NCBI GenBank assembly: GCA_044341625.1
Contig: JBIIRI010000001.1
Location: forward strand, 6,325-70,324
Source: Roseomonas sp.
Lineage (GTDB): Bacteria > Pseudomonadota > Alphaproteobacteria > Acetobacterales > Acetobacteraceae
Direction: 5' to 3'
DNA length: 64,000 nt
Position numbers and translations under genes: made by a program. Each line of letters starts with the position of its first letter. Positions within the stretch are counted from its first letter, which is position 1. Under the pieces are notes generated by a model. It saw only the letters and a list, made by a program, of their open reading frames with translations, ran no database searches and had not been told where the DNA came from. Positions 18,822 to 48,998 of the stretch are shown piece after piece.

Positions 18822-19843
18822 TGCGTGCCCTGCGCCTGCATGGCGACCGCGACCTGCGGCTGGAGGAGGTCGCGCCCCCGCCCCCGCCCGGCCCCGGGGA
18901 GATCCAGATCCGGATCCGCGCGGTCTCGCTGAACCATATCGATGTCTGGGGCTGGCGCGGCATGGCCTTCGCGCAGCGCCAGCTGCCGCTGACCGTCGGC
19001 GCGGAGGCGTCGGGCGAGGTGGTGGCGATCGGCGAAGGCGTGACCGGCTGGGCGATCGGCGACCGCGCGACCCCCTATGGCGCCCGCACCTGCGGCACCT
19101 GCGAGGCCTGCACCTCGGGCCGCGACAATCTGTGCGAGAATGTCCAGGGCGTGGCCGGCTTCCACATCGACGGCTTCGCGCGCGAAGTGGCGAATTGGCC
19201 GGCGCGCACGCTGGTGAAGGTGCCGTCCAGCGTGTCCTTCGAGGACGCGGCCTGTTCCACCGTCACCTTCGGCACGGTCGAGCACATGCTGTTCGACAAT
19301 GCCCGGCTGCAGCCGGGCGAGACCATCCTGATCCAGGCCGCCGGATCGGGCATCGGATCCGTCGCCATCCGCGTCGCCAAGGCGCTGGGCTGCACCGTGA
19401 TCGCGACCGCGGGCGACGACGAGAAATGCGCCAAGGCGAAGGATCTCGGCGCCGATCATGTGGTCAATTACAGCGAGAAGAACTTCTCCACCGTCGCGCG
19501 GCGCGTCACCGGCAAGCGCGGCGTGGATGTGGTGTTCGAACATGTGGGGGCGGCGACCTGGGCGGCGTCCCTGCTCTCGCTCCGCATGGGCGGGCGGCTG
19601 GTGACCTGCGGCAGCACCTCCGGCGTCAATGCCGACACCAACCTGATGATGCTGTTCCAGCGCCAGCTGCACATCTTCGGCAGCTTCGGCTGCCGGATCG
19701 AGAATGTCCGCAATGCGGTGGCGAAGATGGCGTCCGGCATCCGCCCGGTGCTCGACACCGTCGTGCCGCTGGACCGCTTCTCCGAAGGTCTGGAGCGGCT
19801 GGAATCGCGCCGGGTCTTCGGCAAGATCATCGTGACGCTGTGA
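18821..19843 (+). CDS. adhA2XL: MDR/zinc-binding dehydrogenase AdhA2XL
   Basis: CGTCEAC...C structural Zn site, AAGSGIG NAD(P) motif; cluster position. Confidence 0.85.
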   Translation: MRALRLHGDRDLRLEEVAPPPPPGPGEIQIRIRAVSLNHIDVWGWRGMAFAQRQLPLTVGAEASGEVVAIGEGVTGWAIGDRATPYGARTCGTCEACTSGRDNLCENVQGVAGFHIDGFAREVANWPARTLVKVPSSVSFEDAACSTVTFGTVEHMLFDNARLQPGETILIQAAGSGIGSVAIRVAKALGCTVIATAGDDEKCAKAKDLGADHVVNYSEKNFSTVARRVTGKRGVDVVFEHVGAATWAASLLSLRMGGRLVTCGSTSGVNADTNLMMLFQRQLHIFGSFGCRIENVRNAVAKMASGIRPVLDTVVPLDRFSEGLERLESRRVFGKIIVTL

Positions 19844-19985
19844 TGCCCTCAAGCGGCGGGCGCTGCCTGCGGCAGCTTGCCTGCGCGCAGGCCACGGGTG
19901 CGCCCGGCGGGGCGGTTGGTTGGTGCGCGGCGCGCATTCGCGCGCTCGGCCTGCGCGAAATGGCGCCGGCCGCCTTTCCGGCGCG
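19841..19985 (+). repeat. Dispersed multi-hairpin repeat, copy 1
   Basis: Begins TGATGCCCTCA, contains an ATTC-loop hairpin; homologous to 42892 and 48791/48899. Confidence 0.7.
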
Positions 19986-20888
19986 ATGAGCGGACGGCTT
20001 CAGAGGATCGGCGACGAAGCCCTGGCCGCGCTGGTGCGCGGCGCCTTCGGGCTGGTGCGCGCGCTCGGGCCTGACCGCGCGTCCAATCTCGGCGCCGCCG
20101 GCGCGCGGCTGCTCGCGCAGCTGGCGCCGCAGAATCGCATCGCGCGCGAGAACATCGCTGCCGCCTTCCCCGAGAAGACCGAGGCCGAACGCGCCGCGAT
20201 CCTCCGCGAAAGCTGGGAGAATCTTGGCCGCACCGCGGCGGAATATGTCCATCTCGGCGCGCTGTGGGACTGGGACCCGGCCAATCCCGATGCCGGCCGC
20301 ATCGAATTGCCCCCCGACAGCGTCGCGCGATTCCGCCAGTTGCTGGAGGACGGCAAGCCCGCGATGGTCTTCGCGGCGCATCTGGCGAATTGGGAATTGC
20401 CGGCGGTGGCCGCGCAGCGCCACGGCCTGCCGGCGGCCGCGCTGTATCGCACGCCGAACAACCGCGCGATCGCGCGCGACATCCTGGCCATGCGCCGCCC
20501 GGTGATGGGAGAGCTGATCCCCGCCGGCACCGCCGCGCCGATCCGGATGATGGAGGCGCTGGATGCCGGGCTGCATCTCGGCATGCTGGTGGACCAGCGC
20601 TTCGGGCGCGGGCCGCAGGTGCGCTTCCTCGGCCGCACCGCGTCGGCGAACCCGCTGCTCGCGCGGCTCGCCCGGCGCTTCGATTGCCCGGTGCATGGCG
20701 CCCGCGCCATCCGCCTGCCCGGCAACCGCTTCCGGCTGGAGCTGACCGAGGCCATCGCCCTGCCCCGCGACGCGCGCGGCGTGGTGGATGTGGATGCCGC
20801 GACGCAGGCGATCAACGACATCATCGCCGGCTGGATCCGCGAACATCCCGGCCAATGGCTGTGGCAGCACCGCCGCTGGCGGATGTAG
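19986..20888 (+). CDS. lpxXL: Lipid A VLCFA acyltransferase LpxXL (HtrB/MsbB family)
   Basis: AHLANWE, LVDQ, PGQWLWQHRRW. Confidence 0.9.
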   Translation: MSGRLQRIGDEALAALVRGAFGLVRALGPDRASNLGAAGARLLAQLAPQNRIARENIAAAFPEKTEAERAAILRESWENLGRTAAEYVHLGALWDWDPANPDAGRIELPPDSVARFRQLLEDGKPAMVFAAHLANWELPAVAAQRHGLPAAALYRTPNNRAIARDILAMRRPVMGELIPAGTAAPIRMMEALDAGLHLGMLVDQRFGRGPQVRFLGRTASANPLLARLARRFDCPVHGARAIRLPGNRFRLELTEAIALPRDARGVVDVDAATQAINDIIAGWIREHPGQWLWQHRRWRM

Positions 20889-20985
20889 GTCTTTCCATCC
20901 GCGGCGTGGGCGCACCTGGAGCGGCACGACGTACTGGGTTGCCGCGACAGGCGTCGTCGGTCAGCGAAGACGACCGATGAAGTGG

Positions 20986-21408
20986 GGCGCCGGGTGGCCT
21001 GTAAGCCGGGTTCTGTCCACGCCCTAGGGATGAACCCGGGGCGCTGTGCGACCATTCCTCTGGACCCTGCGTTGCCGCAGGGTTCTCGCGGCCAACCCGG
21101 GCGACGGGGCGAGAATGCCCCTGCGTCCACGCGCCTTTCGGCACGCTTCGCCGGCCGCCCCTATTCGGCCTTGCTCCCGGTGGGGTTTGCCATGCCGCCC
21201 CCGTCGCCGGGGGCGCGGTGGGCTCTTGCCCCACCCTTTCACCCTTACCGCGGGGTGTTTCCACGCCGTGGCGGTCTGCTCTCTGTGGCACTTTCCCTGG
21301 GGTTTGACCCCCGCCGGTCGTTGACCGGCACCGTATTCCCGTGGAGCCCGGACTTTCCTCCAGCCGCGTGTCGCCACGCTGCCAGCGGTCGCCCAGCCAC
21401 CCGACGCC
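20986..21408 (-). ncRNA. rnpB: RNase P RNA (bacterial type A)
   Basis: GAGGAAAGTCCGGGCTCC, GGGAAAGTGCCACAGA and ACAGAACCCGGCTTA; P1 helix GGCGTCGGGTGGC/GCCACCCGGCGCC. Confidence 0.97.
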
Positions 21409-21470
21409 ATGGCTCATGTGCGCCCCCCGGGGGCGCGGGTCAACGCCCAGGGCCAGGATGAGAGGGCTGG

Positions 21471-23006
21471 CTAGACCCGCTGCAGCGGCACCCGGGCGGA
21501 AAGCCAGGCCGCGCCGGCCAGCATCAGCGCGGCGGCCAGGAAGGCGGCGCGGAAGGCGCCGGTCATGGCTTCCCGGAACTCGGCGCGGGCCGCCTCCGCC
21601 AGCCCGGCCAGCGCGTCCGGGCCCTGGTTCACCAGGGCCACGAACAACGCCGCGGCATCGCCCCCGCCTTCCCCCGTCCCGCCATGCGCCACCAGCGTGC
21701 CGAACAGCACCGTCCCCATCAGCGCCGTGCCGCTCGCCGCGCCGAGGGAGCGGATGAACTGCACCGAGGCCGTGGCCGCCCCCAGCCGCTCTCGCCCGGC
21801 GGCGAATTGCACCACGACCTGCACCATCGGGAAGGAGGTGCCGAGCGCGATGGAGGCCAGCCCGAGCAGCAGCGCCACCACCGGCACCGCGAGCGCCCCC
21901 GTGCTCAGCGCGACGCCCGCCATGATCGCCGCCGCGAGGGCGAGCCCGATGGTGGGCCAGATCATCGTCCGCCCGGTCCGCGCCAGCAGTTGCCCCGACG
22001 CCATGGCGCCGAGCGCCGCCGCCGCCGCCAGCGGCAGCAGCGCGAGGCCGGAGGCCGCCGGCGACAACCCGCGCACCGCGACGAAATAGATCGGCAGGAA
22101 AGCGATGGCGCCCACGAAAGCGCCCGAGACCAGCGCCGAGGACAGGTTGGCCCGCCAGATCGAAGGCTCGCCCAGCACCTGGAGCGGCAGCAGCGGGTCG
22201 GCCGCGCGCCGTTCCTGCCGCCACAGCAGGACAAGCGCGAGGGCGGCAACGGCGCCAAGCCCCGCCGCCACCGCAAGCGGCCCGGGTGCGAGACGCCGCA
22301 GCTGGTCGAGCGCGAGCAGCGTCGGGGCCACGAACAGCACGAACAGCGCCAGCCCCATCCAGTCGAAGGAGAAGCCCTTGGCCGAGCCCGGCGCGGCGCC
22401 ATCCAGTCGGCGCACCACAAGCCAGGCCGCGACCAGCGCCAGGGGCGGCTGCACCATGAACACGGCGCGCCAGCCGAGCCATTCGGTCAGCAGCCCGCCC
22501 ACCACCGGCCCGGCCGCCGAGGCGGCGGCGAAGATCGCCGCGATCCAGGCCTGGAAGCGCCCGCGTTCCCGCGGCGGCACGAATTCCCCGATCAGCGCGA
22601 TGGACAGCGAGATCAGCCCGCCCCCGCCCAGCCCCTGCACCAGCCGCGCCAGCGCCAGCGTATCCAGCGTGGGCGCCACCGCGCAGAGCACCGCGCCCAG
22701 GGCATAGAGCGCGAGCGAAACCAGCAGCATCCGCCTTCGCCCGAAGGCATCGCCCAGCCGCCCATGCACCGGCGCCGCGATGGTGGTCCCGACCAGATAA
22801 GCGACCACGACCCAAGAGATCCGCTCCACCTCGCCCACCGAGCGGGCGATGGCGGGCAGGGCCGCGGCGACGATGGTCTGGTCCAGCGCCGCGCCGAACA
22901 TGGCCAGCCCCACGGCGGGGAAGACGCGGAAGAACAGCCGCCGCAGCGCGGCATGGCTCAGCGCCGCATCGGCCTGCGCGCCGGGAGGGGGGGAGTTGGG
23001 GGCCAT
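21471..23006 (-). CDS. MFS drug:H+ antiporter (DHA2, 14-TMS)
   Basis: ALDQTIV, GRLGDAFGRRR, GPVVGG. Confidence 0.9.
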   Translation of the reverse strand: MAPNSPPPGAQADAALSHAALRRLFFRVFPAVGLAMFGAALDQTIVAAALPAIARSVGEVERISWVVVAYLVGTTIAAPVHGRLGDAFGRRRMLLVSLALYALGAVLCAVAPTLDTLALARLVQGLGGGGLISLSIALIGEFVPPRERGRFQAWIAAIFAAASAAGPVVGGLLTEWLGWRAVFMVQPPLALVAAWLVVRRLDGAAPGSAKGFSFDWMGLALFVLFVAPTLLALDQLRRLAPGPLAVAAGLGAVAALALVLLWRQERRAADPLLPLQVLGEPSIWRANLSSALVSGAFVGAIAFLPIYFVAVRGLSPAASGLALLPLAAAAALGAMASGQLLARTGRTMIWPTIGLALAAAIMAGVALSTGALAVPVVALLLGLASIALGTSFPMVQVVVQFAAGRERLGAATASVQFIRSLGAASGTALMGTVLFGTLVAHGGTGEGGGDAAALFVALVNQGPDALAGLAEAARAEFREAMTGAFRAAFLAAALMLAGAAWLSARVPLQRV

Positions 23007-23077
23007 CGGCCCAGTCTAGGCGCAAAAGTCTGGGCGCAAAGCCGGCCTTGCCCAGGCCGGCGCGTCGCGCCGGCGGG

Positions 23078-24034
23078 CTACATGACGCCGCCGCGACCCA
23101 TTTCGAGGAACTTCTCGCGCCGGCGGGCGCGCAGCGTCGCGCCGTCCAGCGCCAGCAGCGGCTCCAGCAGCGACCACACCTTGTCGCCCACCGCCGCCAT
23201 CAGCGCATCGGCGTTGCGATGCGCGCCGCCGAGCGGCTCCGGCACGATGGCATCCACCAGGTTCAGGCGGCGCAGATCCTCGGCGGTCAGCCGCAGCGCC
23301 TCGGCCGCCGTCGCCGCCTGGGCGGCGTCGCGCCAGAGGATGGAGGCGCAGCCCTCCGGGCTGATCACGGAATAGACGGCGTGTTCCAGCATCACCACGC
23401 GGTCGGCGGCGGCGAGCGCGATGGCCCCGCCCGAACCGCCTTCCCCGATGATGGTCGCGATGAAGGGCACCGGCGCGTCGAGCCCGGCCTCGATGGAACG
23501 GGCGATGGCTTCCGCCTGGCCGCGCGCCTCCGCCTCGATGCCCGGGAAGGCGCCGGCGGTGTCGACGAAGGAGATGATCGGCAGGCCGAAGCGGCCGGCG
23601 AGTTCCATGATGCGGCGCGCCTTGCGGTAGCCCTCGGGCCGCGCCATGCCGAAATTATGCTTCACACGGCTTTCGGTGTCCCGGCCCTTCTCGGTGCCGA
23701 GAACCGCGACCGCCCGGCCGCGGAACCGCCCGAGGCCGGCCACCACCGCCGCGTCATCGGCATAGGCCCGGTCGCCGGCCAGCGGCGTCCAGTCCGTGAT
23801 CAGGGCGCGGACGTAGTCAAGCGCCTTCGGCCGTTCCGGATGGCGGGCAACCAGCGTCTTCTGCCAGGGCGAGAGCTTGGCATAGGTCTGGCGCAGCAGG
23901 GATTCGGCCTTGTCGCGAAGCCGGCCGACCTCCTCGGCCACGTCGATACCGCCCGCATCGGTGGTCCGGCGGAGCTCCTCGATCTTGCCTTCGAGCTCGG
24001 CGATCGGCTTTTCGAATTCAAGGAAGTGGCGCAT
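23078..24034 (-). CDS. accA: Acetyl-CoA carboxylase carboxyltransferase alpha
   Basis: FLEFEKPI, ARHPERP, GEGGSGGA, SVISPEGC. Confidence 0.97.
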   Translation of the reverse strand: MRHFLEFEKPIAELEGKIEELRRTTDAGGIDVAEEVGRLRDKAESLLRQTYAKLSPWQKTLVARHPERPKALDYVRALITDWTPLAGDRAYADDAAVVAGLGRFRGRAVAVLGTEKGRDTESRVKHNFGMARPEGYRKARRIMELAGRFGLPIISFVDTAGAFPGIEAEARGQAEAIARSIEAGLDAPVPFIATIIGEGGSGGAIALAAADRVVMLEHAVYSVISPEGCASILWRDAAQAATAAEALRLTAEDLRRLNLVDAIVPEPLGGAHRNADALMAAVGDKVWSLLEPLLALDGATLRARRREKFLEMGRGGVM

Positions 24035-24093
24035 GGCGCCCCGGTGTTAGCCTGGAACGCGGGCGGGCGAAAGCGTTGGCGGCGCCTGCCCCC

Positions 24094-25125
24094 TCAGCAC
24101 GCGGCGGGGGGCGGGGTGGCGGTGGCGAAGCGCAGCAGGCAGGCCCCAAAACGGTCGTTGAACGCGCCGCTCGCCCCCGCACCATGTCCGGTCGGCTGTT
24201 CGGGGCGGTCGATGAACAAGAAGGCGCCGGCCCGCGCGCCGAGTTCGCGGAACAGCCGAGCGCGTGCCTCAGGCTCAGCATCGAAGGGGTCTTCGCGGAA
24301 CACCGCGACAGCCAGGCGGGCTCCGGGCGCTCCCGCAGCGGCGGCCACGATAGTGCGCAGGTCGTCCAATTGCCGTTGGTGGGCCGCGCTGCCGGTCTGG
24401 CCATGAGCGGCCGGGGCGACCGCGATGGCCACATCGACCAGCCCCGGCGTCTCGAGGGCCATGAGGCTGTTCCAGCCGCCACGGGATTGGCCCGCGACGA
24501 CGACATGCCGGTAGCCCCGGCGCCGCAGCTCCGTGAGGTCGCCAGCCAGCCAGCCGGCGGCGCGCGCGGTCTCGTCCGAATTGGGGTGGCGGTCGAAGCG
24601 CCACACATCGTAGCCGGCATTGTTGAAACGCCGCGTCCAGGCTTGCGGCTGCCCGCCCCGGCTGTCCGCGCCGCCCGCCGAGCGCCCATGGGCGAAGACC
24701 AGCACCCCGCGCGCCTGGTCCGGCCCCCACCAGAGGAAGCGCGGATCCGGCACCGTCTCATGGTTCCAGGAGGACAGGCGCATCCCGGCCGGCGGCTCCG
24801 GCGGCGCCCAAGCGCGGCCGGGCAGCACCACCGCCAGATCGCGCACCGCCACCTCGCAGGGCGCGCCGCCGCTGCGGCGCTGGCAGCTGTCCAGGGCGCG
24901 TTGCTCGAGCTCCTCTGGCGTACCGCCGAGTGATTGCCAGCCTATCGCCCCGTTCGGGCCAAGCGCCAGGACCCGCGGCACCGGATAGCGCAGGAAACGC
25001 TCGACGCTGGCGCGGTCGGGCTGCGAGAGACCGGGGCTTGCCGCCATCTCCAGCAGCGGATTGCGCGGCTGCGCCGCTGCCGGCCAGGCTGCGAGGAGCA
25101 GGAGCAGGACGGCGGGGAGGCGCAT
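24094..25125 (-). CDS. Secreted alpha/beta hydrolase with an N-terminal Cys-pair domain
   Basis: Signal peptide, FAHG, GQSRGG nucleophile elbow, EDPFD, GHGAG. Confidence 0.75.
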
Positions 25126-25310
25126 GGGACGATCCCGGTTCGTTTCGAATGCATGCTGCAAACATGCCGCCGGCCTGTCCAGCGCCGGGTCACGCAGCCA
25201 CCCGGCCCGCGCCGGCGCGGCCCGCCCATCTCCGGGCAAGGCTTGCCCCGGCCCGGCGGGGGCGGCATGTTCCGCCACCTTTTCCCGACCCCCAAAGGGA
25301 CTTCCCCACC

Positions 25311-26546
25311 ATGCGCGTCAAGGACGTGAAGAAGGTCGTTCTCGCCTACTCCGGCGGGCTCGACACCAGCGTGATCCTCAAGTGGCTGCAGACCACCTAC
25401 AAGTGCGAGGTGGTGACCTTCACCGCCGATCTCGGCCAGGGCGAGGAGCTTGGCCCGGCGCGCGACAAGGCGCTGATGCTCGGCATCAAGCCCGAGAACA
25501 TCTTCATCGACGACCTGCGCGAGACCTTCGTGAAGGACTTCGTCTTCCCGATGTTCCGCGCCAATGCGCTGTATGAGGGGATGTATCTCCTCGGCACCTC
25601 CATCGCCCGGCCGCTGATCGCGCAGCGCCAGATCGAGATCGCGGAGCAGGTCGGCGCGGATGCCGTGGCGCATGGCGCGACTGGCAAGGGCAACGACCAG
25701 GTCCGCTTCGAGATCGGCTATTACGCGCTGAAGCCGGATGTGAAGGTCATCGCGCCCTGGCGCGAATGGGACCTGACCAGCCGCACCGCGCTGATCGCCT
25801 TCGCCGAACAGCACCAGATCCCCATCGCCAAGGACAAGCGCGGCGAAGCGCCCTTCAGCGTGGACGCCAACCTTCTCCACAGCAGCTCCGAGGGCAAGAT
25901 CCTCGAGGAGCCGTGGGATGCGGCGGATGAGATGGTGTGGCAGCGCACCATCAGCCCGATGGACGCCCCCGACCGCGCGACCGAGATTACCATCGAGTTC
26001 GAGCGCGGTGACGCGGTGGGCATCAACGGCGAACGCATGTCGCCCGCGACCCTGCTGACGCGCCTGAACGCGCTGGGCAAGGAGAATGGGATCGGCCGGC
26101 TCGACCTGGTGGAGAACCGCTTCGTCGGCATGAAGTCCCGCGGCTGCTACGAGACGCCGGGCGGCACCATCCTGTATGTCGCGCACCGCGCGATGGAGAG
26201 CATTACGCTGGACCGGGAGGCCGCGCACCTCAAGGACAGCCTGATGCCGCGCTATGCGGAGATCATCTACAACGGCTTCTGGTTCAGCCCGGAGCGGCGG
26301 ATGCTGCAGGCGCTGATCGACCAGAGCCAGGCCAGCGTGACGGGCACGGTGCGGCTGAAGCTCTACAAGGGCAACACGATCGTCACGGGGCGGCAGTCGC
26401 CGCACAGCCTGTACTCGATGAAGCACGTGACCTTCGAGGACGACCAGGGCGCCTATGACCAGTTCGATGCCCAGGGCTTCATCAAGCTGAACGCGCTGCG
26501 CCTGCGCCTCGGCGCCATGGCCGGCCGCAAGGGCGGCGCGCTGTAA
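25311..26546 (+). CDS. argG: Argininosuccinate synthase
   Basis: [33 protein letters not shown]. Confidence 0.97.
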
Positions 26547-26555
26547 CCCAGAACT

Positions 26556-26600
26556 CCCTCTCCCCCCCCCCGACGGGGGGAGAGGGTCGGGGTGAGGGGG
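26556..26600. repeat. REP-like palindrome CCCTCTCCC...GGGAGAGGG..GGGTGAGGG
   Basis: Hairpin immediately after the argG stop; related copy at 54681. Confidence 0.65.
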
Positions 26601-26621
26601 CCTCCCCATGATCGCCGCCCC

Positions 26622-27818
26622 ATGACCGACGCCCGCTTCACCGCTGCGGTGGTCGCCGCACAGGTGCTGGTGCAGATCGGCGCCTTCACCCTGCCGGCCC
26701 TGCTGCCCGGCTACATGGACCGCTGGTCGCTCTCGGCGACCGAGGCAGGCTGGCTCGTCGGTGCCTTCTTCGCCGCCTATGTGGTCGCAGTACCGGTGCT
26801 GGTCGCGCTGACGGACCGGCTGCCGGCGCAATGGATCTACCTGGTCGGCGCCGGCGCCACCGCCCTGTCCCATCTCGGCTTCGCCTTCCTCGCGGAGGGG
26901 TTCTGGAGCGCGCTGGCGCTGCGCGCCATCGGCGGCATCGGCTGGGCGGGCGCCTATATGCCGGGGCTCAAGGTGCTGGCGGACCGGCAGGAAGGCGCGG
27001 CGCAGTCGCGCGCCGTCAGCTGGCACGCGGCCGGCGTCGGCATCGCAGGCGCCGTGTCCTTCGCCGTGGCGGGCGCGATCGATGCGCTGGCAGGCCCGGA
27101 AGCCGCCTTCGTGTTCGGCGGCGTGGCGGCGCTCGCGGCGGGGGCGATCGGGCTGGCGGTGATGCCGGGGGCCGCCCCGCGCGAGCCTCGCTCGCTGGCG
27201 GCGGCGCTGGATTTCCGCCCCGTGCTCCGCAACCGCGCGGCGATGGCCTGGATCGCGGGCTACACGGCGCATACCTGGGAACTGGGCGCGCTCCGGGCCT
27301 GGGGCGTGACGTTCCTGGCCGCCGCCATCGCGCTGCACGGCGCGCCCGCCTGGCTGCCGGGGCCGAACCTGCTGTTCACGGTCGCCGGGCTGCTCGGCGT
27401 CGCAATCTCGGTCGCGGGGAACGAGACGGCGCAGCGCTTCGGGCGGATGCGGATGGTGGCCGTCGCGATGGGGACGGGCGCAGTGCTGTCCCTGGCCGCC
27501 GGGGTCTCGCTGCTGGTCTCCGCGCCCCTGGCGGCGCTCTGCGTGATGCTCTGGAACGCCGCGATCTACCTGGACAGCGCGGCGCTGACGACGGGCACGC
27601 TCGAGGTCTCGGACCGGGCCCGGCGCGGCGCGACGATGGGGCTGCACAGCATGTGCGGCTATGCGGGCGGCTTCCTCGGCCCCGTCGGGCTGGGCATGGC
27701 GCTGGACCTGGCCGGCCCGGACCCTGTGCTCGGCTGGACGCTGGCTTTCGGCCAGCTGGCGCTGGTGACCCTGGCCGGGCTCTGGGCGGTGCGGCGGCTG
27801 GGGCGCGCCGCGCCCTGA
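26622..27818 (+). CDS. MFS transporter
   Basis: About 12 TM segments, LTDRLP and LADRQEG loop motifs. Confidence 0.85.
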   Translation: MTDARFTAAVVAAQVLVQIGAFTLPALLPGYMDRWSLSATEAGWLVGAFFAAYVVAVPVLVALTDRLPAQWIYLVGAGATALSHLGFAFLAEGFWSALALRAIGGIGWAGAYMPGLKVLADRQEGAAQSRAVSWHAAGVGIAGAVSFAVAGAIDALAGPEAAFVFGGVAALAAGAIGLAVMPGAAPREPRSLAAALDFRPVLRNRAAMAWIAGYTAHTWELGALRAWGVTFLAAAIALHGAPAWLPGPNLLFTVAGLLGVAISVAGNETAQRFGRMRMVAVAMGTGAVLSLAAGVSLLVSAPLAALCVMLWNAAIYLDSAALTTGTLEVSDRARRGATMGLHSMCGYAGGFLGPVGLGMALDLAGPDPVLGWTLAFGQLALVTLAGLWAVRRLGRAAP

Positions 27819-38926: not shown

Positions 38927-38932
38927 GACGTT

Positions 38933-41056: not shown

Positions 41057-41168
41057 TGCCGGCCGACTATAGCCGGTGAGCGATCCGGTTCCCCTGCCGG
41101 CTCGCCCGACCATTCCGATCGGAAAATCAAAAGTAGCGCCCGGTCACCCCCCTGGCCGGGCGTTTTTT
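41057..41168 (+). ncRNA. Candidate trans-acting small RNA
   Basis: TTGCAT-N18-TAAGCT promoter upstream, hairpin with a C-rich loop, A-rich linker, intrinsic terminator; ends approximate. Confidence 0.5.
41136..41168 (+). terminator. Rho-independent terminator
   Basis: GCGCCCGGTCA-CCCCCC-TGGCCGGGCGT followed by TTTTT. Confidence 0.85.
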
Positions 41169-41289
41169 GTTGCTCGGCTCTTTTTCGCCCAGCGCAAGAC
41201 ACTGACGAGATGGAAAGTCCCGGTCACGATCTTGCGCGGGCCCATCCACAGGGTATGACAGCAACGCTTCCAGGTTGGGGAACCAGAAA

Positions 41290-41976
41290 ATGTCCGAATT
41301 CGTCATCGCGCCGCCCAAGGTGGCCTACCTGCCCGTCAAGGGCGGCGGCAAGTTTCCGGTGCGCCGCATCTTCTGCGTCGGCCGCAACTACGCCGAGCAC
41401 GCGATCGAGATGGGCTCCGACCCGACGCGCGAGCCGCCCTTCTACTTCGCGAAGCCGGCGGACAGCCTGGTGATCGACGGCGCCGACATGCCCTATCCGG
41501 TCGCCAGCAAGAACCTGCACCATGAGATGGAGCTGGTGGTTGCCATCGGCACCGGCGGCGCGAACATCGCCCAGGCGGATGCGCTGAAGCATGTGTGGGG
41601 TTGGTGCGCCGGCCTCGATATGACGCGCCGCGACCTGCAGAACGAAGCGAAGAAGACCGGCCGCCCGTGGGACATGGGCAAGGGCTTCGACCATTCCGCG
41701 CCGATGGGCCTGCTGGTGAAGCATGACGGGTCCTATGACGGCTCGAAGGGCAAGATCGAGCTCAAGGTCAACGGCGTGGTGAAGCAGGTCTCCGACCTGT
41801 CCAAGCTGATCTGGTCGGTGCCCGAGGTGATCGCGAATCTCTCCGGCCTCGTGCGGCTGGAGCCGGGCGACCTGATCATGACCGGCACGCCCGAGGGCGT
41901 CGCGGCCGTGGTGAAGGGCGATGTCCTCGAAGGCTTCGTCGAGGGCGTGGGCGAGATCCGCACCAAGATCGTCTGA
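41290..41976 (+). CDS. Fumarylacetoacetate hydrolase family (fumarylpyruvate hydrolase-like)
   Basis: [34 protein letters not shown]. Confidence 0.92.
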
Positions 41977-41984
41977 TCCCACTC

Positions 41985-42857
41985 GTGGCGGCCAGGCCGA
42001 AGACGCAGCAGCCCGCGCCGGCGATCATCGCCGGCACGAAGCCGCTGCGGATCGTGACGTGGAACATCAATTCCGTCCGGCTGCGGCTGCCGCTGCTGGC
42101 GGATCTCGTCGCCGCGCTGGCGCCCGACGTGATCTGCCTGCAGGAGACGAAGTGCCCCGACGAGCACTTCCCGCACGAAGGCATCGCTGCGCTTGGCTTC
42201 GCGCATCGCGCGGTGCGCGGGATGAAGGGCTACAACGGCGTCGCCATCCTCTCGAAGCTGCCGTTCAGCCTGCGTGATGGCCAGGACCCCGATTGGTGCG
42301 GCAAGGGCGATTGCCGACACATCGCCGCCGAGATCGACGCGCCGGGCGGTGCCGTCGAACTGCATGATTTCTACATACCCGCGGGCGGCGACATCGCCGA
42401 CCGCGAGGCCAATCCGAAATTCGCCCACAAGCTGGATTTCGTCGCCGAAGCCACCGCCTGGTCGGCGCGGCGCCATGCGGCGGGCGGCTTCCGGCGCGCG
42501 GTGCTGGTGGGCGACCTGAATATCGCGCCGCTGGAACATGATGTCTGGAGCCATAAGCAACTGCTCGACGTCGTCTCCCACACCCCGGTCGAGACGGCGG
42601 CGCTGGGCGGGATGATGCAGGCGGGCGGCTGGCACGACGCGCTGCGCCACTTCGTGCCGGCGGACCAGAAGCTCTACACGTGGTGGTCCTATCGCGCCGC
42701 GGATTGGCGCGCCTCCGATCGCGGGCGGCGGCTCGACCATGTCTGGGTCTCGCCGGACCTGGTGGGCGGGCTGCGGAGCCATGCCGTGCTGAAGGATGCT
42801 CGCGGGTGGGACAAGGCGTCGGACCACGTGCCGGTGCTGATCGAGATCGCCACCTGA
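41985..42857 (+). CDS. xth: Exodeoxyribonuclease III
   Basis: TWNINSVR, LQETK, YNGVAI, GDLNIAP, RLDH, SDHVPV; start uncertain. Confidence 0.93.
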   Translation: MAARPKTQQPAPAIIAGTKPLRIVTWNINSVRLRLPLLADLVAALAPDVICLQETKCPDEHFPHEGIAALGFAHRAVRGMKGYNGVAILSKLPFSLRDGQDPDWCGKGDCRHIAAEIDAPGGAVELHDFYIPAGGDIADREANPKFAHKLDFVAEATAWSARRHAAGGFRRAVLVGDLNIAPLEHDVWSHKQLLDVVSHTPVETAALGGMMQAGGWHDALRHFVPADQKLYTWWSYRAADWRASDRGRRLDHVWVSPDLVGGLRSHAVLKDARGWDKASDHVPVLIEIAT

Positions 42858-42859
42858 CA

Positions 42860-42892
42860 CCAACGGTCGCTTTCAGCGACTCGTTGGTTTTT
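42860..42892 (+). terminator. Rho-independent terminator after xth
   Basis: CCAACG-GTCGC/TTTCA/GCGAC-TCGTTGG followed by TTTTT. Confidence 0.75.
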
Positions 42893-42986
42893 GATGCCCT
42901 CAGGCGCCGGGCGCGGCCTCCGGCCGCTTGGCTTTCACCGCACTTGCGGCGGCGGCCATTCGGCCGCTCGACCGGCTGCGCCGGTC
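42892..42986 (+). repeat. Dispersed multi-hairpin repeat, copy 2
   Basis: TGATGCCCTCA..CGCCGGGCGCGGCCTCCGGCCGCTTGGCTT is shared with the dpp copies. Confidence 0.75.
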
Positions 42987-43089
42987 GCATGGCTCAGCGA
43001 CTGCAGCCGCTGGCATGACCCGGCGCTGCGCGGGGCTGGCAAGCGCCGCGCGGCAATGCCATGTGACTGCCAGTCCAGGGGGACGGCCA

Positions 43090-44451
43090 TTGGGCTTCGC
43101 GCACACCATCGGCGGCACCCGCCATGTTTTCGCAGACCTCCGCACGCTGCTCGCGCGGGCGTCGCCGGCGCGCTCGGGCGATGCGCTGGCAGGCGTCGCG
43201 GCCGGCAGCGCGGCGGAACGGGTCGCGGCGCAGCGCGCCCTGGCGGATCTGCCGCTGAAGCACTTCCTGACCGAAGCGATGATCCCCTATGAGGCCGATG
43301 AGGTCACGCGGCTGATCATCGACCGCCACGACGCGGCGGCCTTCGCGCCCGTATCCCACCTGACCGTCGGCGGCTTTCGCGACTGGCTGCTGGCGGAGGC
43401 CGACACGTCAGTGCTGACCGCGCTCGCGCCCGGGCTGACGCCGGAAATGGTCGCGGCGGTCAGCAAGATCTGCCGGCTGCAGGACCTCGTCGCGATTGCG
43501 GCGAAGTGCCGCGTCGTCACGCGCTTCCGCAACACGCTCGGCCTGCCGGGGACGCTTGGCATCCGGTTGCAGCCCAACGACCCGGTGGACGACCCGAAGA
43601 GCATCGCGGCGCAGATCCTGGATGGGCTGCTGCTCGGCGCCGGCGATGCGGTGATCGGCATCAATCCCGCGACCGACAATGTGGACAGCCTGCTGCGCCT
43701 GCTCGGCCTGCTCGACGCGCTGCGGGATCGCTTCGCCATCCCGACGCAATCCTGCGTGCTGGCGCATGTGACGACAACGCTGATGGCCATCGAACGCGGC
43801 GCGCCGGTGGATCTGGTGTTCCAGTCGGTCGGCGGGACGGAAGGCGCCAATCGCGGCTTCGGCGTCTCCCTCGCCCTGCTGCGCGAAGCGCGGGAGGCCG
43901 CGCTGGCGCTGAAGCGCGGCACCATTGGCGACAACGTCATGTACTTCGAGACCGGCCAGGGCAGCGCGCTATCCGCCGACGCGCATCACGGCTGCGACCA
44001 GCAGACGCTGGAAGCGCGGGCCTATGCCGTGGCGCGGGACTTCGCACCCCTGCTGGTGAATTCCGTCGTCGGCTTCATCGGCCCGGAATACCTGTTCGAC
44101 GGCAAGCAGATCATGCGCGCGGGACTGGAGGACCATTTCTGCGGCAAGCTGCTCGGCCTGCCGATGGGGGTGGATGTTTGCTACACGAACCATGCGGAAG
44201 CCGACCAGGACGACATGGACGCGCTGCTGACGCTGCTCGGCGTCGCGGGCGTGAACTACGTGATGGGCGTGCCGGGCGCGGATGACGTGATGCTGGCCTA
44301 CCAATCCACATCGTTCCATGACGGGCTCTATGCGCGCGCAGTTCTCGGCAAGCGGCCGGCGCCGGAATTCGCGGAGTGGCTCGCGCGCATGGGCATCGCG
44401 ACCGCGACGCCCGAGATGCTGCCCGGTGCCATGGCCCCGGTCCTCTCATGA
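43090..44451 (+). CDS. eutB: Ethanolamine ammonia-lyase large subunit
   Basis: SGDALAG, RLQPNDP, DAVIGINPA, YFETGQGS, VDVCYTNH; TTG start after GGGGG. Confidence 0.95.
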   Translation: MGFAHTIGGTRHVFADLRTLLARASPARSGDALAGVAAGSAAERVAAQRALADLPLKHFLTEAMIPYEADEVTRLIIDRHDAAAFAPVSHLTVGGFRDWLLAEADTSVLTALAPGLTPEMVAAVSKICRLQDLVAIAAKCRVVTRFRNTLGLPGTLGIRLQPNDPVDDPKSIAAQILDGLLLGAGDAVIGINPATDNVDSLLRLLGLLDALRDRFAIPTQSCVLAHVTTTLMAIERGAPVDLVFQSVGGTEGANRGFGVSLALLREAREAALALKRGTIGDNVMYFETGQGSALSADAHHGCDQQTLEARAYAVARDFAPLLVNSVVGFIGPEYLFDGKQIMRAGLEDHFCGKLLGLPMGVDVCYTNHAEADQDDMDALLTLLGVAGVNYVMGVPGADDVMLAYQSTSFHDGLYARAVLGKRPAPEFAEWLARMGIATATPEMLPGAMAPVLS

Positions 44452-45227
44452 CGGAACCACCGGCGCTTGCCTGGTCCGACCTGCGGCGCTTCACCGCCGC
44501 GCGGGTCGGACTTGGCCGTGCGGGCAATGCGCAGCCGACGGTGGCGCATCTCGATTTCGTGGAAGCGCATGCGCGCGCGCGCGACGCCGTTTGGTCCACG
44601 CTGGATGCCGAGGCGCTGGAGGCCGCGCTGGCCCCTCTCGGCGTCGCGACGGCGCGCGTCGCGAGCGCGGCGGCCGACCGGCGCGACTATCTGCTGCGCC
44701 CCGATCTCGGACGCCGGCTGCGGGCGGAGGATCGTGACAGGCTGGCGGCGACGCCGCATCCCGGCAGCTTCGCCATCGTGCTGGCCGATGGCCTCTGCGC
44801 GACCGGCGTGCAGGCGCAGGCCCCCGCGCTAGTCGCGACGCTACTGCCGGGGCTGCGCGGGGCGGGCTGGGATGTCGCGCCCGTGGTGATCGCGCGCGAA
44901 GCCCGCGTCGCGCTCGGCGACGACATCGCGGAGGCGCTCGGCGCGACGGCGGTCGCGGTGGTGATCGGGGAACGGCCGGGGCTCAGCGCGCTCGACAGCA
45001 TGGGGATCTACCTGACCTGGGCGCCCAAGCGCGGCCGCAGCGATGCGGAGCGAAACTGCATCAGCAATATCCGCCCCGGCGGCCTCGGCACGGCGGAGGC
45101 CGCGCGCAAGCTGCTGTGGCTGGTCGCCGCCGCGCGGCGGCTCGGCGCGACGGGCGTCGCGCTGAAGGATGAGGAACCCGTTGCGCTGGATGCACCGCAA
45201 GCCGCGCCGGCGCTACCTCAGTCGTAG
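44448..45227 (+). CDS. eutC: Ethanolamine ammonia-lyase small subunit
   Basis: TAARVGLGRAG, YLLRPDLGR, IGERPGLS, RNCISNI. Confidence 0.95.
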   Translation: MTEPPALAWSDLRRFTAARVGLGRAGNAQPTVAHLDFVEAHARARDAVWSTLDAEALEAALAPLGVATARVASAAADRRDYLLRPDLGRRLRAEDRDRLAATPHPGSFAIVLADGLCATGVQAQAPALVATLLPGLRGAGWDVAPVVIAREARVALGDDIAEALGATAVAVVIGERPGLSALDSMGIYLTWAPKRGRSDAERNCISNIRPGGLGTAEAARKLLWLVAAARRLGATGVALKDEEPVALDAPQAAPALPQS

Positions 45228-45991
45228 GTGACCATTCGGAGCGCGGCGTCCCGGTCATAGCCCTTCGAGGCCAGCAGAAGCTGGCGCGTATAGGCCTCGC
45301 GCGGGTTTTCCTGGCGCAGCGTGGCGACGTCCATCTCCTCGACCACGACGCCGCGATTCATCACCGCCAGTCGGTCGCACATATGCGCCACAACGGCCAG
45401 GTTGTGGCTGACCAGGATCATCGTCAGCCCCTGCGCGGCGCGCAGCCGGCGCAGCAGGTTCAGGATCTCGGCCTGCACGCTGACATCCAGCGCCGAGGTC
45501 GGCTCATCGAGCAGCAGCACCTTCGGCTCCAGCATCAGCGCGCGCGCGATCGCGACGCGCTGGCGCTGGCCGCCGGATAGCTGGTTCGGGTAGCGGAAGC
45601 GGAAGGCCGGGCCCAGCCCGACATCGGCCAGCACCTTTTCGACCCGCGCGGAGATATCGCCGATGCCGTGGATCTCGAGCGGTTCGGACAGCGCGCGATC
45701 GACGGTATGGCGCGGGTGGAGGGAGGCGTAGGGGTCCTGGAAGACCATCTGCGCGATGCGGGTCAGCCGCCGATCCTGCCCAGCGACATCGAGCCCGGCG
45801 ATGGTGGCGCTGCCGGTCCAGTCGCGGTTGAGCCCCGCCAGCGCGCGCAGCACGGTGGATTTCCCACTGCCGCTTTCGCCGACCACGCCGAAGCTCTCGC
45901 CGGCCGCGACATCGAAGGACACGCCGCGCACGGCCTGAACCGCATCGCGGCCCTTCCCGAAGCTGACGACAAGGTCGCGGACCGAGATCAT
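45218..45991 (-). CDS. Peptide ABC transporter ATP-binding subunit (DppF-like)
   Basis: [27 protein letters not shown]. Confidence 0.92.
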   Translation of the reverse strand: MISVRDLVVSFGKGRDAVQAVRGVSFDVAAGESFGVVGESGSGKSTVLRALAGLNRDWTGSATIAGLDVAGQDRRLTRIAQMVFQDPYASLHPRHTVDRALSEPLEIHGIGDISARVEKVLADVGLGPAFRFRYPNQLSGGQRQRVAIARALMLEPKVLLLDEPTSALDVSVQAEILNLLRRLRAAQGLTMILVSHNLAVVAHMCDRLAVMNRGVVVEEMDVATLRQENPREAYTRQLLLASKGYDRDAALRMVTYD

Positions 45992-45994
45992 GCC

Positions 45995-46831
45995 TCAGCC
46001 CTCCAGCCAGGACGGGTCGCGCTGCAGCGTCGGCAGTTCCGCGCGTTGATCGTCGATGCGCGGCAGGCTGCGGAGCAGGCCGCGTGTGTAGGGATGCGTC
46101 GCATTGGCCAGGTCGCGCGCGGCCCGTTCCTCCACCACCCGGCCCGCATACATCACCAGCACCCGGTCGCAGAAGGACGCGACGAGGTCGAGGTCGTGGC
46201 TGATGAAGATCAGCCCCATGCCGCGCTTGGCCACCAGATCGTCAAGGATCGCCAGCACCTGCATCTGCACGGTGACATCCAGCGCGCTGGTGGGTTCATC
46301 CGCGATCAGCAGGTCGGGCTCCGGCACCAGCATCATCGCGATCATGATGCGCTGGCCCATCCCGCCCGAGACCTCATGCGGATAGAGCCGCATGACGCGT
46401 TCCGGATCGCGGATGCGGACGGCTTCCAGCATCTCGAGCGTCTTGCGCCGCGCGTCCTTGGCGGAAACACCGCCATGGATGCGCGCGGCTTCCGCGATCT
46501 GGTCGCCGACGGTCATCACTGGGTTCAGCGAGTATTTCGGGTCCTGCAACACCAACGAGATGCGCGCGCCGCGGATGCCGCGCAGCGCGCGCGGGGATGC
46601 GGCCAGCAGGTCCGTGCCGTCGAAGGCGAGCTTCCGCGCCTCCAGCCGCGCGCTTGGCGGCAGCAGGCGCATGATGGCGCGGCCCGTCAGCGACTTGCCC
46701 GAGCCGCTTTCGCCGACGATGCCGAGCCGCTCACGCCCCAGCGCGAAGGACACGCCGCGCACGGCGCGGAAGGGGCCGGTGGGCGTGGCGAAGGTGACCC
46801 GCAGGTCCTCGACTTCCAGCAGATGCGTCAC
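45995..46831 (-). CDS. Peptide ABC transporter ATP-binding subunit (DppD-like)
   Basis: [26 protein letters not shown]; GTG start overlapping the dppC stop. Confidence 0.92.
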
Positions 46832-47757
46832 TTCTTCTGCCTCGGGTCGAGAACGTCGCGCAGCCCGTCGCCCAGCAGGTTGAAGGCCAGGCTCACCACG
46901 AAGATCGCAAGCCCCGGGATCGTCGCGACCCACCACTGATCCAGGATGTAGCGCCGGCCGGAGGATACCATCGCCCCCCATTCCGCCATCGGCGGCTGCG
47001 CGCCGAGGCCGAGGAAGCCCAAGCCCGCCGCCGTCAGGATAATCCCCGCCATGTCCAGCGTGACCCGCACGGTGAGGGAGGAGACGCAGAGCGGCATCAC
47101 ATGCCGGAACAGGATGCGCCCCGTCCCCGCGCCCTGGATGCGCGCCACCGCGATGAAGTCGCTGTTGCGGATGGTCAGCGTCTCGGCCCGCGCGATACGG
47201 GCGTAAGGGGGCCAGGAGGTCAGCGCGATGGCGATAACCGCATTCTCGATCCCCGGGCCGAGTGCCGCGACGAAGGCCAGCGCCAGGATCAGGCTGGGGA
47301 AGGCCAGGAACACGTCGGTGACGCGCATCAGCGCCGCATCGACCCAGCCGCCGAGATAGCCCGCCGCTGTCCCGACGATCAGCCCGATGGGGGCCGCGAT
47401 CAGCGCCACCAGCACCACGATATAAAGCGTGATCCGCGCCCCGTAGATGAGGCGGGAGAAGATGTCGCGACCGAATTCGTCGGTGCCGAGCCAATGCCCC
47501 GCGCTGCCCGGCGGCAGCAGCCGCTGCGCCAGGTTCTGCTCATAGGGATTATGCGTCGCGATCCAGGGCGCGAAGACCGCGGCGAGCACCAGCGCCAGGA
47601 CGATGGCCAGCCCCAGCACCGCCAGCCGGTTGCGCTTGAATTGCAGCCAGCCGCGATAGACCTGGCCGAGCTTCGCCTGCCGCCGGGATCTCGGCGTGTC
47701 GGTCAGAAGCTGTGCGCGCCAGCCCTGCGGGGCGCTGTGGACGTCCGGTTGGGTCAT
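46828..47757 (-). CDS. Peptide ABC permease (DppC-like)
   Basis: [14 protein letters not shown]-like loop, LGFLGLG. Confidence 0.92.
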
Positions 47758-48764
47758 CGGGCCCTCGGGTCCAGCAGGCGGTAGAGCAGGTCGGACAGCA
47801 GGTTGATGCCGACGAAGACGAGGCCCACCACGATCGTCGCCCCGAGCACCGCGTTCATGTCGCCGGCCAGCAGCGCCGTGGTCAGGTAGCGGCCGAGGCC
47901 GGGCCAGGCGAAGACCGTCTCGGTCAGCACCGCGCCTTCCAGCAGCCGTGCATAGGACAGCGCGATCACGGTGACGAGCTGGACGGCGATGTTGCGCAGC
48001 GCGTGCACCCAGATGATCCGCGCTTCCGACACGCCCTTGGCGCGGGCGGTGACGACATATTCCTGGTTCAGCTGTTCCAGCATGAAGGACCGCGTCATGC
48101 GCGCGATGTAGGCTATGGAGAAATAGCCCAGCACCGCCGATGGCAGCACGACATGGCCGAAGGCGTTGCGGAACACCTCCCACTCGCCGGCGATCGCGGC
48201 ATCTACCAGGATCACGCCGGTCACGGTCGGCACCATGTCTTCGAAGAAGATGCCGAGCCGCCCTGGCCCCTGCACCCAGCCCAGTATGCCGTAGAAGACC
48301 AGCAGCCCGATGATGCCCAGCCAGAAGATCGGCACCGAATAGCCGACCAGCCCGATGACGCGCACCAGCTGGTCCGGCCAGCGATCCTGCCAGACCGCGC
48401 CCGCGATCCCCATCGGCACGCCGAGCACGACGCCGATGACGGTCGCGAAGGTCGCGAGTTCCAGCGTGGCGGGGAAGACGCGGCGGATGTCGTCGATCAC
48501 CGGGGCGTTGGTGACCAGCGACATGCCGAAATCCCCGGCCGCCATCTTCTTCACATACAGCCAGAACTGGACCCAGAGCGGCTGGTCGAGCCCGAGCTCG
48601 CGCCGCACCGCTTCATACACGTCGCGCGGCGCCTGGTCGCCGACCACGGCCAGCACCGGGTCGATCGGCACCACGCGGCCGATGAAGAAGGTCACCGCCA
48701 GCAGGCCGAGCAGCGTGAGGGCAACCTGCAGCAGGAAGCCCGGCGCCTGGCGCAGGGCGGTCAT
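47754..48764 (-). CDS. Peptide ABC permease (DppB-like)
   Basis: LGLDQPL, PATLEL, TARAKG, ETVFAWPGLG. Confidence 0.92.
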   Translation of the reverse strand: MTALRQAPGFLLQVALTLLGLLAVTFFIGRVVPIDPVLAVVGDQAPRDVYEAVRRELGLDQPLWVQFWLYVKKMAAGDFGMSLVTNAPVIDDIRRVFPATLELATFATVIGVVLGVPMGIAGAVWQDRWPDQLVRVIGLVGYSVPIFWLGIIGLLVFYGILGWVQGPGRLGIFFEDMVPTVTGVILVDAAIAGEWEVFRNAFGHVVLPSAVLGYFSIAYIARMTRSFMLEQLNQEYVVTARAKGVSEARIIWVHALRNIAVQLVTVIALSYARLLEGAVLTETVFAWPGLGRYLTTALLAGDMNAVLGATIVVGLVFVGINLLSDLLYRLLDPRAR

Positions 48765-48790
48765 GGATGCATCATTCCAACAATCAGCAC

Positions 48791-48998
48791 TGGCGGCGCG
48801 CCAAGGGCGCGCCGAGGCCGCGAATGCGGTCCGCGGCCGGTGCCGCGAAGCCAAGCGGCCGGAGGCCGCGCCCGGCGATTGAGGGCATCATCACGTCCTG
48901 GCGGCGCGCCAGAGGCGCGCCGAGGCCGCGAATGCGGCCCGCGGCCGGTGCCGCGAAGCCAAGCGGCCGGAGGCCGCGCCCGGCGATTGAGGGCATCA
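48791..48998 (-). repeat. Dispersed multi-hairpin repeat, tandem copies 3 and 4 (100-nt units, 108-nt period)
   Basis: 48791-48890 and 48899-48998 differ at about 3 positions; each reads TGATGCCCTCA... on the minus strand. Confidence 0.92.

Follow-up and report, generated by a model that had tools for sequence, protein, structure and literature searches.

A structure-conserving, MITE-like intergenic repeat family, apparently undescribed, in a Roseomonas genome and other Alphaproteobacteria

The four hairpin-rich intergenic repeats in a 64,000-nt stretch of a Roseomonas sp. genome (the window) probably belong to a family of non-coding, non-autonomous mobile DNA, MITE-like and mosaic in build and about 100–170 nt long. 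The target of insertion is T(G/C)A, which is entered in either orientation and becomes duplicated, and the element carries a folded core whose stems covary. As a mobile, T(G/C)A-duplicating element with a conserved core it would be a new family among known kinds of element rather than a new regulatory RNA; the family is apparently an undescribed, structure-conserving MITE-like repeat. The copies and their flanks are located in the window as follows.

19841–19843 (+): TGA, left copy of the target duplication of copy 1, stop codon of an alcohol-dehydrogenase-family gene
19844–19986 (+): copy 1, 143 nt, long hairpin-B type, CGGC/TTGCC variant
19987–19989 (+): TGA, right copy of the target duplication of copy 1
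42855–42857 (+): TGA, left flank of copy 2, stop codon of xth
42858–43015 (+): copy 2, complete composite unit of subfamily FAM2, 158 nt, 76.5 bits
43016–43018 (+): TGA, right flank of copy 2, same as the left flank
48787–48887 (−): dpp unit 2, short type, 76.6 bits
48894–48995 (−): dpp unit 1, short type, 78.2 bits

The exact 11-mer TGATGCCCTCA occurs at 19841 (+), 42892 (+), 48890 (−) and 48998 (−), at each of the places where an earlier note, made from the sequence alone, had put a copy; if one mismatch is permitted, the window contains five matches against 1.4 expected. All four copies share the start TGATGCCCTCA-NN-CG[C/G]CGGGC, followed by hairpins A to D with the stem swaps that the note had described. 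The proposed boundaries required more revision. Copy 1 does abut the stop codon of the dehydrogenase gene (adhA2XL), but the unit proper, which runs from the head TGCCCTCAAGCGGCGGGC to ...CCGGCGCGA, starts only behind this TGA and is followed by a second one (the covariance-model match, C136:26168-26272 or window 19844–19948, scores 41.5 bits). Copy 2 had been thought to begin at the U-tract of the xth terminator. The terminator-like hairpin is instead part of the element, which comprises, in 5' to 3' order, the outer repeat CACCAACGG, this hairpin (42860–42887), a T-run (42888–42892), the core (42895–42970), hairpin D, and a tail with the terminal ...GCCGCTGGCA. The same hairpin and T-run stand upstream of 10 copies and are missing after xth in 19 relatives, which argues against the hairpin being the terminator of xth itself. 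The two dpp units are 95% identical and lie on the minus strand between a Dpp/Opp-family binding-protein gene and a permease gene. Unit 1 starts 4 nt past the TAA stop (49002–49000) and has TGA at 48998–48996 and 48893–48891; unit 2 has TGA at 48890–48888 and 48786–48784, and is located 19 nt upstream of the permease ATG (minus strand, from 48764).

Target duplication can be read directly at the adhA|lpxXL junction, the only base-exact pair of a filled and an empty site. Two relatives (G012 and G014) have the empty junction ACGCTG-TGA-G(T/C)(G/A)G with a single TGA (followed by GTGG or GCAG), and the Roseomonas sp. genome has ACGCTG-TGA-[143 nt]-TGA-GCGG. One TGA copy of the duplication keeps the upstream stop, and the terminal A of the element, placed beside the other copy, restores an ATG for the downstream gene. 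This start codon of the lipid A acyltransferase (LpxXL-type) gene is thus composed of A19986, T19987 and G19988; in relatives, the start of the lpxXL-type gene is a GTG sharing bases with the TGA stop. Among eight orthologous loci and the named Roseomonas MAGs, only this genome has the dppA|dppB junction filled, and no element follows xth in any of 19 relatives. Because TGA serves as a stop codon and stop/start overlaps (GTGA, ATGA) are common in this high-GC genome, many copies lie precisely on the stop codon of a gene. In other taxa the flanks can differ, and TTA and TAA are seen, with TTA on the flanks in a Rhodospirillales MAG.

The outer modules are optional and contribute short inverted repeats, and one subfamily gains a terminator-like hairpin and U-run through them. 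In FAM1 the inverted repeats are about TAYCMAGCGCAC, and TCA is found at both flanks in 8 of 11 copies (a chance match is expected in 1/64 per copy). FAM2 is represented by 10 copies, with the same architecture also in Falsiroseomonas stagni (L013), and has the outer repeats TACCAACGG...CCGTTGGCA. All three complete FAM2 units have identical flanks (TCA/TCA, TGA/TGA and, in F. stagni, TCA/TCA), a count restricted to units with both outer modules, as a loose regular expression for the right-end motifs yielded mostly noise. That one family can be flanked by either TGA or TCA is consistent with double-strand insertion in both orientations. Copy 1, the dpp units and other head-type copies lack a recognisable inverted repeat, and their right ends are heterogeneous, so the flanking TGA of many such copies could be due to chance. 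TGAT also stands in front of the head within FAM2 composites, where it may belong to the element itself or be left over from a nested insertion.

The family extends far beyond the four copies to which the earlier note was confined. The exact 11-mer occurs 17 times in the genome, with 15 of these occurrences in true copies, and the numbers rise to 66 copies with nhmmer and 81 with a covariance model in 3.6 Mb; further copies exist in many relatives. In none of the 81 does the overlap with a predicted gene exceed 30 nt, despite a coding fraction of 88%. According to the same gene predictions, made with a codon-usage caller, 17 copies are situated between convergent and two between divergent genes, and between co-directional genes 31 are in sense and 24 in antisense orientation. 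The agreement of orientation with the flanking genes, as noted earlier for the window, therefore applies to these four copies but not to the genome as a whole. In 16 of 48 sense copies, the element begins at most 6 nt from the upstream stop codon. Tandem and nested copies also occur. Median nearest-neighbour identity is 86%, only three pairs reach 95% or more (two of them tandem neighbours), and the copies in this genome appear to be mostly old. Like MITEs, the family consists of many short, dispersed, non-coding copies (about 80) that duplicate their target and occupy sites found empty in relatives. Terminal inverted repeats, a further MITE feature, are seen in FAM1 and FAM2 but not in head-type copies, and no parent insertion sequence sharing the ends was found among the transposase loci of this genome.

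The core begins with the head GCCCUCA-RR-CG[C/G]C-GGGC, followed by hairpin A (loop (A)UCC), the linker UUG[G/C]CU, hairpin B, and hairpin C (loop NKUC). In keeping with the covariation anticipated from the first copies, 94.2% of the alignment cells are paired versus 64.9% after shuffling, double changes are found in 17 of 18 base pairs, and the covariation score is 0.492 compared with 0.130 for shuffled alignments and at most 0.096 for slid controls. Judged from the aligned sequences, the stems vary by paired substitutions, and the loops and linkers are constant across alphaproteobacterial orders. An additional covarying helix, P1, connects CG[C/G]C of the head with TTG[G/C]C of the linker: in an unforced scan of 101 distinct sequences, CGGC was accompanied by TTGCC in 97 and by TTGGC in none. 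Together with the GCCC/GGGC pairing (P0) and hairpins A to C, this helix may form a pseudoknot. On the sense strand, G.U pairs (about 21) outnumber A.C pairs (about 8), and a G.U pair closes hairpin C in 21 sequences. Folding z-scores are modest (−2.4, −5.1 and +0.2). The element matches no known Rfam family at gathering or permissive thresholds; the best sub-threshold match, at 19.1 bits (E=0.19, gathering score 56), is rsmX, on the reverse strand of the dpp pair. Literature searches returned no match to the literal head sequences, and none among descriptions of REP, MITE or RIME repeats.

Covarying stems with loops and linkers fixed across orders would also suit a host-selected cis-acting RNA module, in which selection acts on structure at the RNA level and mobility is incidental or ancient. 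Such a module would serve in sense orientation as a 3' stabiliser or terminator and in antisense orientation as a leader with a ribosome-binding site. The G.U excess on the sense strand and the G.U closure of hairpin C point in this direction, as do the hairpin and U-run that all 10 FAM2 copies place directly behind a same-strand gene, an antisense GAGGG located 5–10 nt ahead of a start codon in six or more copies according to automatic gene calls (about 12 by eye), and the gap between binding-protein and permease genes, which is a classic REP location. However, the mixed orientation relative to genes and the empty orthologous sites in relatives speak against any RNA family tied to particular genes, as had been considered earlier, and the terminator-like hairpin of FAM2 precedes the core, which would thus be left out of the transcript. 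In addition, the z-scores are modest, and repair templated by the hairpins themselves can maintain pairing in the stems even where no selection acts. We regard the RNA module as improbable. The mobile-DNA reading has a difficulty of its own, as the conservation of loops and linkers across orders exceeds that usual for DDE-type MITEs. It is possible, if unlikely, that the core is a nucleic-acid fold read by an enzyme, perhaps single-copy or domesticated, in a lasting partnership like that of REPINs but without a RAYT, or that the element is an RNA-acting, expression-neutral gene-boundary cassette. Such a cassette would restore stop and start codons and, depending on its orientation, offer either a terminator or a ribosome-binding site.

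The minimal form without inverted repeats, the conserved covarying hairpins, the G.T versus A.C strand asymmetry, and the mosaic, BIME-like build with tandem arrays are reminiscent of single-strand-DNA elements of the REP/REPIN-RAYT or IS200/IS605-PATE type, for which TGA would be the cleavage or target motif of a Y1 HUH transposase. Yet this 97%-complete genome lacks Y1_Tnp (PF01797), which was detected in control genomes, and so do 13 of 16 element-rich genomes, complete ones included. Moreover, one TGA at the empty site becomes two at the filled site, TGA or TCA flanks within one subfamily are not expected of a strand-specific mechanism, a GTAG-type 5' box is lacking, and the largest contig of another carrier (G248) has the element on both strands. 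These observations make a single-strand-DNA origin highly improbable; of the initial proposal of a REP/RIME-like or MITE-like element, the MITE-like, mosaic intergenic repeat is supported, and the REP/RAYT part is not. The weak rsmX-like match, in a region where the loop of hairpin A' reads GGA or GGAU, could hint at a small-RNA gene family or a protein sponge, for example of the Rsm/CsrA type with GGA loops on the reverse strand. We find this barely credible, as the match is far below its gathering score, the genome has no CsrA gene, promoter-like sites were looked for and not found, and the copies abut coding regions in both orientations.

A MITE-like element would be moved in trans by a DDE-type transposase cutting with a 3-bp stagger, with IS5-family, IS1031-like behaviour as the nearest precedent; such an enzyme may be absent from, or unrecognised in, this genome. 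None of its 10 DDE_Tnp_1 or rve loci has element-like termini, with only chance 10–12-mers seen, and no credible kilobase-sized unit bounded by inverted heads or outer repeats was found in the genome and about 240 loci (three spurious cases, one of them a repeat-bounded contig without a transposase). The folded core might persist because mobilisation or tolerance depends on it, with a hairpin that follows a gene serving as a 3' barrier or terminator, and GAGGG on the reverse strand as a ribosome-binding site. Alternatively, hairpin-templated repair might maintain the pairing. The one IS5-type remnant examined as a parent, on contig C149, has the unrelated ends GGTTCTGTGGACA, and a match to GCGCACGAAGG beside its transposase lies within a GNAT gene and is coincidental.

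The IS1031 group of the IS5 family duplicates 3 bp at 5'-TNA-3' (in ISfinder conventions), and IS1031 itself originates from Acetobacteraceae. MITEs of this group resemble the element in being short, non-coding, multi-copy and inserted either way with a 3-bp T-N-A duplication. The element differs in its ends (T(G/A)CC... instead of the GAG typical of the group), in its conserved covarying multi-hairpin core, in a minimal form without inverted repeats, and in that no IS with matching ends was found. Enterobacterial REP/BIME and REPIN-RAYT systems share GC-rich intergenic hairpins with compensatory changes, mosaic or tandem arrays, positions behind genes and between binding-protein and permease genes, and long persistence in a lineage. 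They are built on palindromes of 20–40 nt, however, whereas the element has about 100 nt or more with four hairpins and the head-linker helix, duplicates its target, and lacks a RAYT gene and GTAG box. The Correia elements (CREE/NEMIS) of Neisseria are likewise non-autonomous gene-boundary repeats of roughly 100–160 nt that can provide terminators or expression signals, and to our knowledge no transposase is known for them either; their 26-nt inverted repeats, TA duplication and IHF site set them apart, and the sequences are unrelated. FAM2, with its hairpin and U-run behind the stop in the orientation of the gene, recalls the pneumococcal Rho-independent-terminator-like element SPRITE and further repeats that resemble terminators, but here the terminator is only an optional module, and taxon and sequence differ. 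RIME1 and RIME2 (Rhizobium-specific intergenic mosaic elements), compared by description only, are also alphaproteobacterial mosaics of intergenic palindromes; the covariance model, however, matches few Rhizobiales.

About 80 clusters of intergenic hairpins in this genome, and many more in Acetobacteraceae, Azospirillaceae, Magnetospirillum relatives and Sphingomonadales, are accounted for by the family; they might otherwise be mistaken for gene-specific terminators, small RNAs or riboswitch candidates. The family also illustrates that overlapping stop/start junctions in operons can receive a small element with both genes left intact. With hundreds of diverged copies, whose stems change in pairs and whose loops are fixed, it forms an unusual dataset for asking whether structure in mobile DNA is kept up by transposition, RNA function or templated repair, and the covariance model and head motif are ready for use in masking or annotating such repeats. 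Among 301 sampled alphaproteobacterial genomes, 23 contain covariance-model matches, including Roseomonas-group Acetobacteraceae and relatives of Azospirillum, Magnetospirillum and Erythrobacter. The distribution is patchy, with other genera of the same taxonomic family negative in this sample. In a plasmid collection, the matches were confined to heads of 40–60 nt in Azospirillum and Niveispirillum replicons.

The draft source genome comprises 3.61 Mb in 265 contigs with 70.5% GC, and the window corresponds to positions 6325-70324 of its contig C136. All four hairpin-chain copies were confirmed at the sites and in the form that the earlier note had described, each with the exact head 11-mer TGATGCCCTCA; the end sequences of the element are TGCCCTCA..., TACCAACGG..., and TAYCMAGCGCAC. 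We class the element among the bacterial non-autonomous intergenic repeats, as a new family whose folded core is unusually well conserved; this upholds the MITE-like mosaic repeat among the readings first offered. The copies and other features of this contig are listed here in window coordinates.

19841 (+): 11-mer of copy 1, between the genes of a zinc alcohol-dehydrogenase-family protein (adhA) and a lipid A acyltransferase (lpxXL; PRK06553, cut-off exceeded)
20986-21404 (-): RNase P RNA, bacterial class A (257.5 bits), immediately 3' of the acyltransferase gene
42892 (+): 11-mer of copy 2, behind xth
48890 (-) and 48998 (-): 11-mers of the two dpp units, in the dppA|dppB gap
61121-61131 (-): CGATGCCCTCA, the head 11-mer with one mismatch, where the covariance model gives no copy; probably a chance match
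63463-63535 (-): tRNA gene
64409 onward, past the window end (C136:70733-70870): fifth copy on the contig, long type, starting on the TGA stop codon of the upstream gene

The other genes flanking window copies encode exodeoxyribonuclease III, EutB, and a binding protein and permease of the Dpp/Opp family. The best named relatives of the DppB-like permease are from Roseomonas sp. MAGs (91-93% identity), and the source is accordingly taken to be a probable Acetobacteraceae member of the Roseomonas group.

The adhA|lpxXL junction was compared in 20 congeners. In two of them (G012 and G014) it lacks the element and reads ...ACGCTG TGA G(T/C)(G/A)G..., with the acyltransferase start GTG overlapping the TGA stop. 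The source genome reads ...ACGCTG TGA (143 nt) TGA GCGGACGG..., and its new lpxXL ATG consists of the last A of copy 1 and the TG of the second TGA. The element is also absent from G017 (TGAC-ATG), and diverged elements occupy the junction in G031 and G013. Among the loci compared, the dppA|dppB junction holds the element in the source genome only; relatives with a 93% identical DppB have another hairpin repeat in this gap, and the remaining ones have a spacer of 1-3 nt. For the xth 3' site, no similar sequence was found in any of 19 relatives. A distinct hairpin repeat, CTCCCTCCCCCGC-loop-GCGGGGGAGGGAG, fills the same junctions in congeners without the element (upstream of the dppB match at the relatives' loci L153:2509-2800, reverse strand, L154, and L316, and upstream of lpxXL at L126 and L129). 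Both junctions look like hot spots shared by several families of repeats.

Two subfamilies in the source genome, FAM1 and FAM2, have outer inverted repeats. FAM1 (11 copies; TAYCMAGCGCACGAAGG...CCTTCGTGC-CCCTCA...core...CTTCGTGCGCTG) is flanked by TCA on both sides in 8/11 copies and is mostly antisense, fitting exactly between a stop and a start codon. In FAM2 (10 copies; TACCAACGGYCGC-TTTCA-GCGRCTCGTTGG-T-run, core, ...CCGTTGGCA), the flanks are identical in all three units with both ends, one of which is from Falsiroseomonas stagni. Copy 2 of the window is a FAM2 unit (42858-43015) with TGA at each side. By score, the FAM2 module is a predicted intrinsic terminator, and it is gene-oriented in 10/10 copies. 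The simplest, head-type copies have no inverted repeats and ragged right ends. Because TGA or TCA flanks occur within one family, these sequences point to double-stranded T(G/C)A as the insertion target, entered in either orientation. For a TNA duplication of 3 bp, the closest precedent would be the IS5 family's IS1031 group.

When 96 copies, taken from the source genome and from named genomes, were parsed for structure, a single architecture emerged, which opens with N-GCCCTCA-RR-CG[C/G]C-GGGC. Hairpin A (6-7 bp; loop TCC, ATCC, or GTCC) is joined by the linker TTG[G/C]CT to hairpin B (6-7 bp; first loop base A), which distinguishes short from long forms of the element. Hairpin C (5-7 bp; loop ATTC, GTTC, GGTC, AGTC, or CGTC) is followed by (C)T(C/T)G and a variable hairpin D. 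The GCCC/GGGC pairing (P0) is invariant. Single-sequence folds show the hairpins, with z-scores of -2.4 for the dpp unit, -5.1 for copy 2, and +0.2 for copy 1. Several copies of the source genome outside the window contain or adjoin a second small palindromic module, GTCGTGCCGAAGGCACGCC-N-GGCGTGACGC (C198:4370-4410; C107:19335-19365; C75:16214-16250; C122:1560-1600; C82:25055-25100, in tandem).

The compensatory stem changes seen in the window were borne out in a larger alignment (set A3; 114 covariance-model hits from 100 sources), which is model-fitted and thus biased towards structure: 94.2% of cells were paired vs 64.9% after shuffling, 17/18 pairs had double changes, and the covariation score was 0.492, compared with 0.130 for the shuffled alignment and no more than 0.096 when partners were slid. 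Stem swaps are also visible by eye in the 96-copy parse, and G.T pairs outnumber A.C on the sense strand by about 21 to 8. Hairpin-templated repair could produce paired stem changes without selection. For the helix between head and linker, CGGC heads were collected across all GTDB species while both linker positions were left unconstrained; TTGCC occurred in 97 of 101 distinct sequences and TTGGC in none. In the source genome, CGCC goes with GGC in 30/32 copies and CGGC with GCC in 5/6. This shows that head-linker pairing matters, although it is effectively one compensated pair marking two old lineages, not many independent events. If P0 and this helix both form, they would make a pseudoknot.

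Exact 11-mers number 17 genome-wide (15 of them true copies), a head-region profile search gave 66 copies, and a covariance model seeded with 11 sequences (A2, R1) reported 81 at E<=0.01, so the four window copies have many further counterparts. None of the 81 overlaps a gene by more than 30 nt, as judged from the 3,399 genes (88% of the genome) predicted with a purpose-made codon-usage caller. Between co-directional genes 31 copies are sense vs 24 antisense, and the earlier note's statement that copies are oriented with the flanking genes therefore does not generalise. Convergent genes enclose 17 copies and divergent genes two; avoidance of promoter-bearing gaps does hold.

Exact heads occur in 18/18 congeners (10-43 per genome; reversed-pattern control 0). 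The covariance model matched 23 of 301 sampled alphaproteobacterial genomes (21/254 genera), with no match in two small-genome genera of Acetobacteraceae in this sample. Named carriers include Roseomonas, Falsiroseomonas, Neoroseomonas, Roseococcus, and Rubritepida; Azospirillum, Niveispirillum, and Nitrospirillum; Magnetospirillum, Novispirillum, Caenispirillum, Thalassospira, and Terasakiella; and Erythrobacter, Novosphingobium, Sphingomonas, and Croceicoccus. Loop variants in the 96-copy parse are lineage-specific, which fits long residence with local amplification. Nearest-neighbour identity has a median of 86% and reaches 95% or more in three pairs, two of them tandem neighbours; the copies would thus mostly be old.

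A REP/RAYT origin, raised as one option in the earlier note, and an IS200/IS605-like one fail because the Y1 enzyme is missing (no Y1_Tnp in the source genome and 13/16 carrier genomes), a target duplication is present, and the flanks have two orientations. Element-related ends were found at 0/5 DDE_Tnp_1 and 0/5 rve transposase loci of the source genome, and no kilobase-sized units lie between element repeats in the genome and loci searched. One contig terminates in what remains of an IS5-family transposase (C149:12050-12602); its end GGTTCTGTGGACACTTATC adjoins CTAG and is unrelated to the element termini. The proposed cis-acting RNA family does not hold in pure form, given empty orthologous sites and mixed orientation; inserted copies may still be under RNA-level selection. 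No Rfam family matches the element in the search that the earlier note had suggested, no paper containing the literal head sequence was found, and the REP/MITE/RIME literature yielded no matching description.

As to effects on the host, 16/48 sense copies start no more than 6 nt from the upstream stop codon, and GC-rich hairpins in sense orientation could block 3' exonucleases. The antisense head, UGAGGGC, precedes a start codon by 5-10 nt in a number of copies: automatic calls give at least six, and inspection by eye about 12. A role as CsrA sponge fails because the source genome has no CsrA gene and the rsmX match reaches just 19 bits. At C107:16170-16217, the head-like ATGAACCCTCAGACGCCGGGCGCG supplies the opening codons of a gene whose product has a signal-peptide-like N-terminus, either by chance or as a recruited fragment. 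At C9:17445-17700, two long-type copies stand in tandem right after the 3' end of a tRNA gene (GGTTCAAGTCCCTCCGCCCGCA), followed by a degenerate third head.
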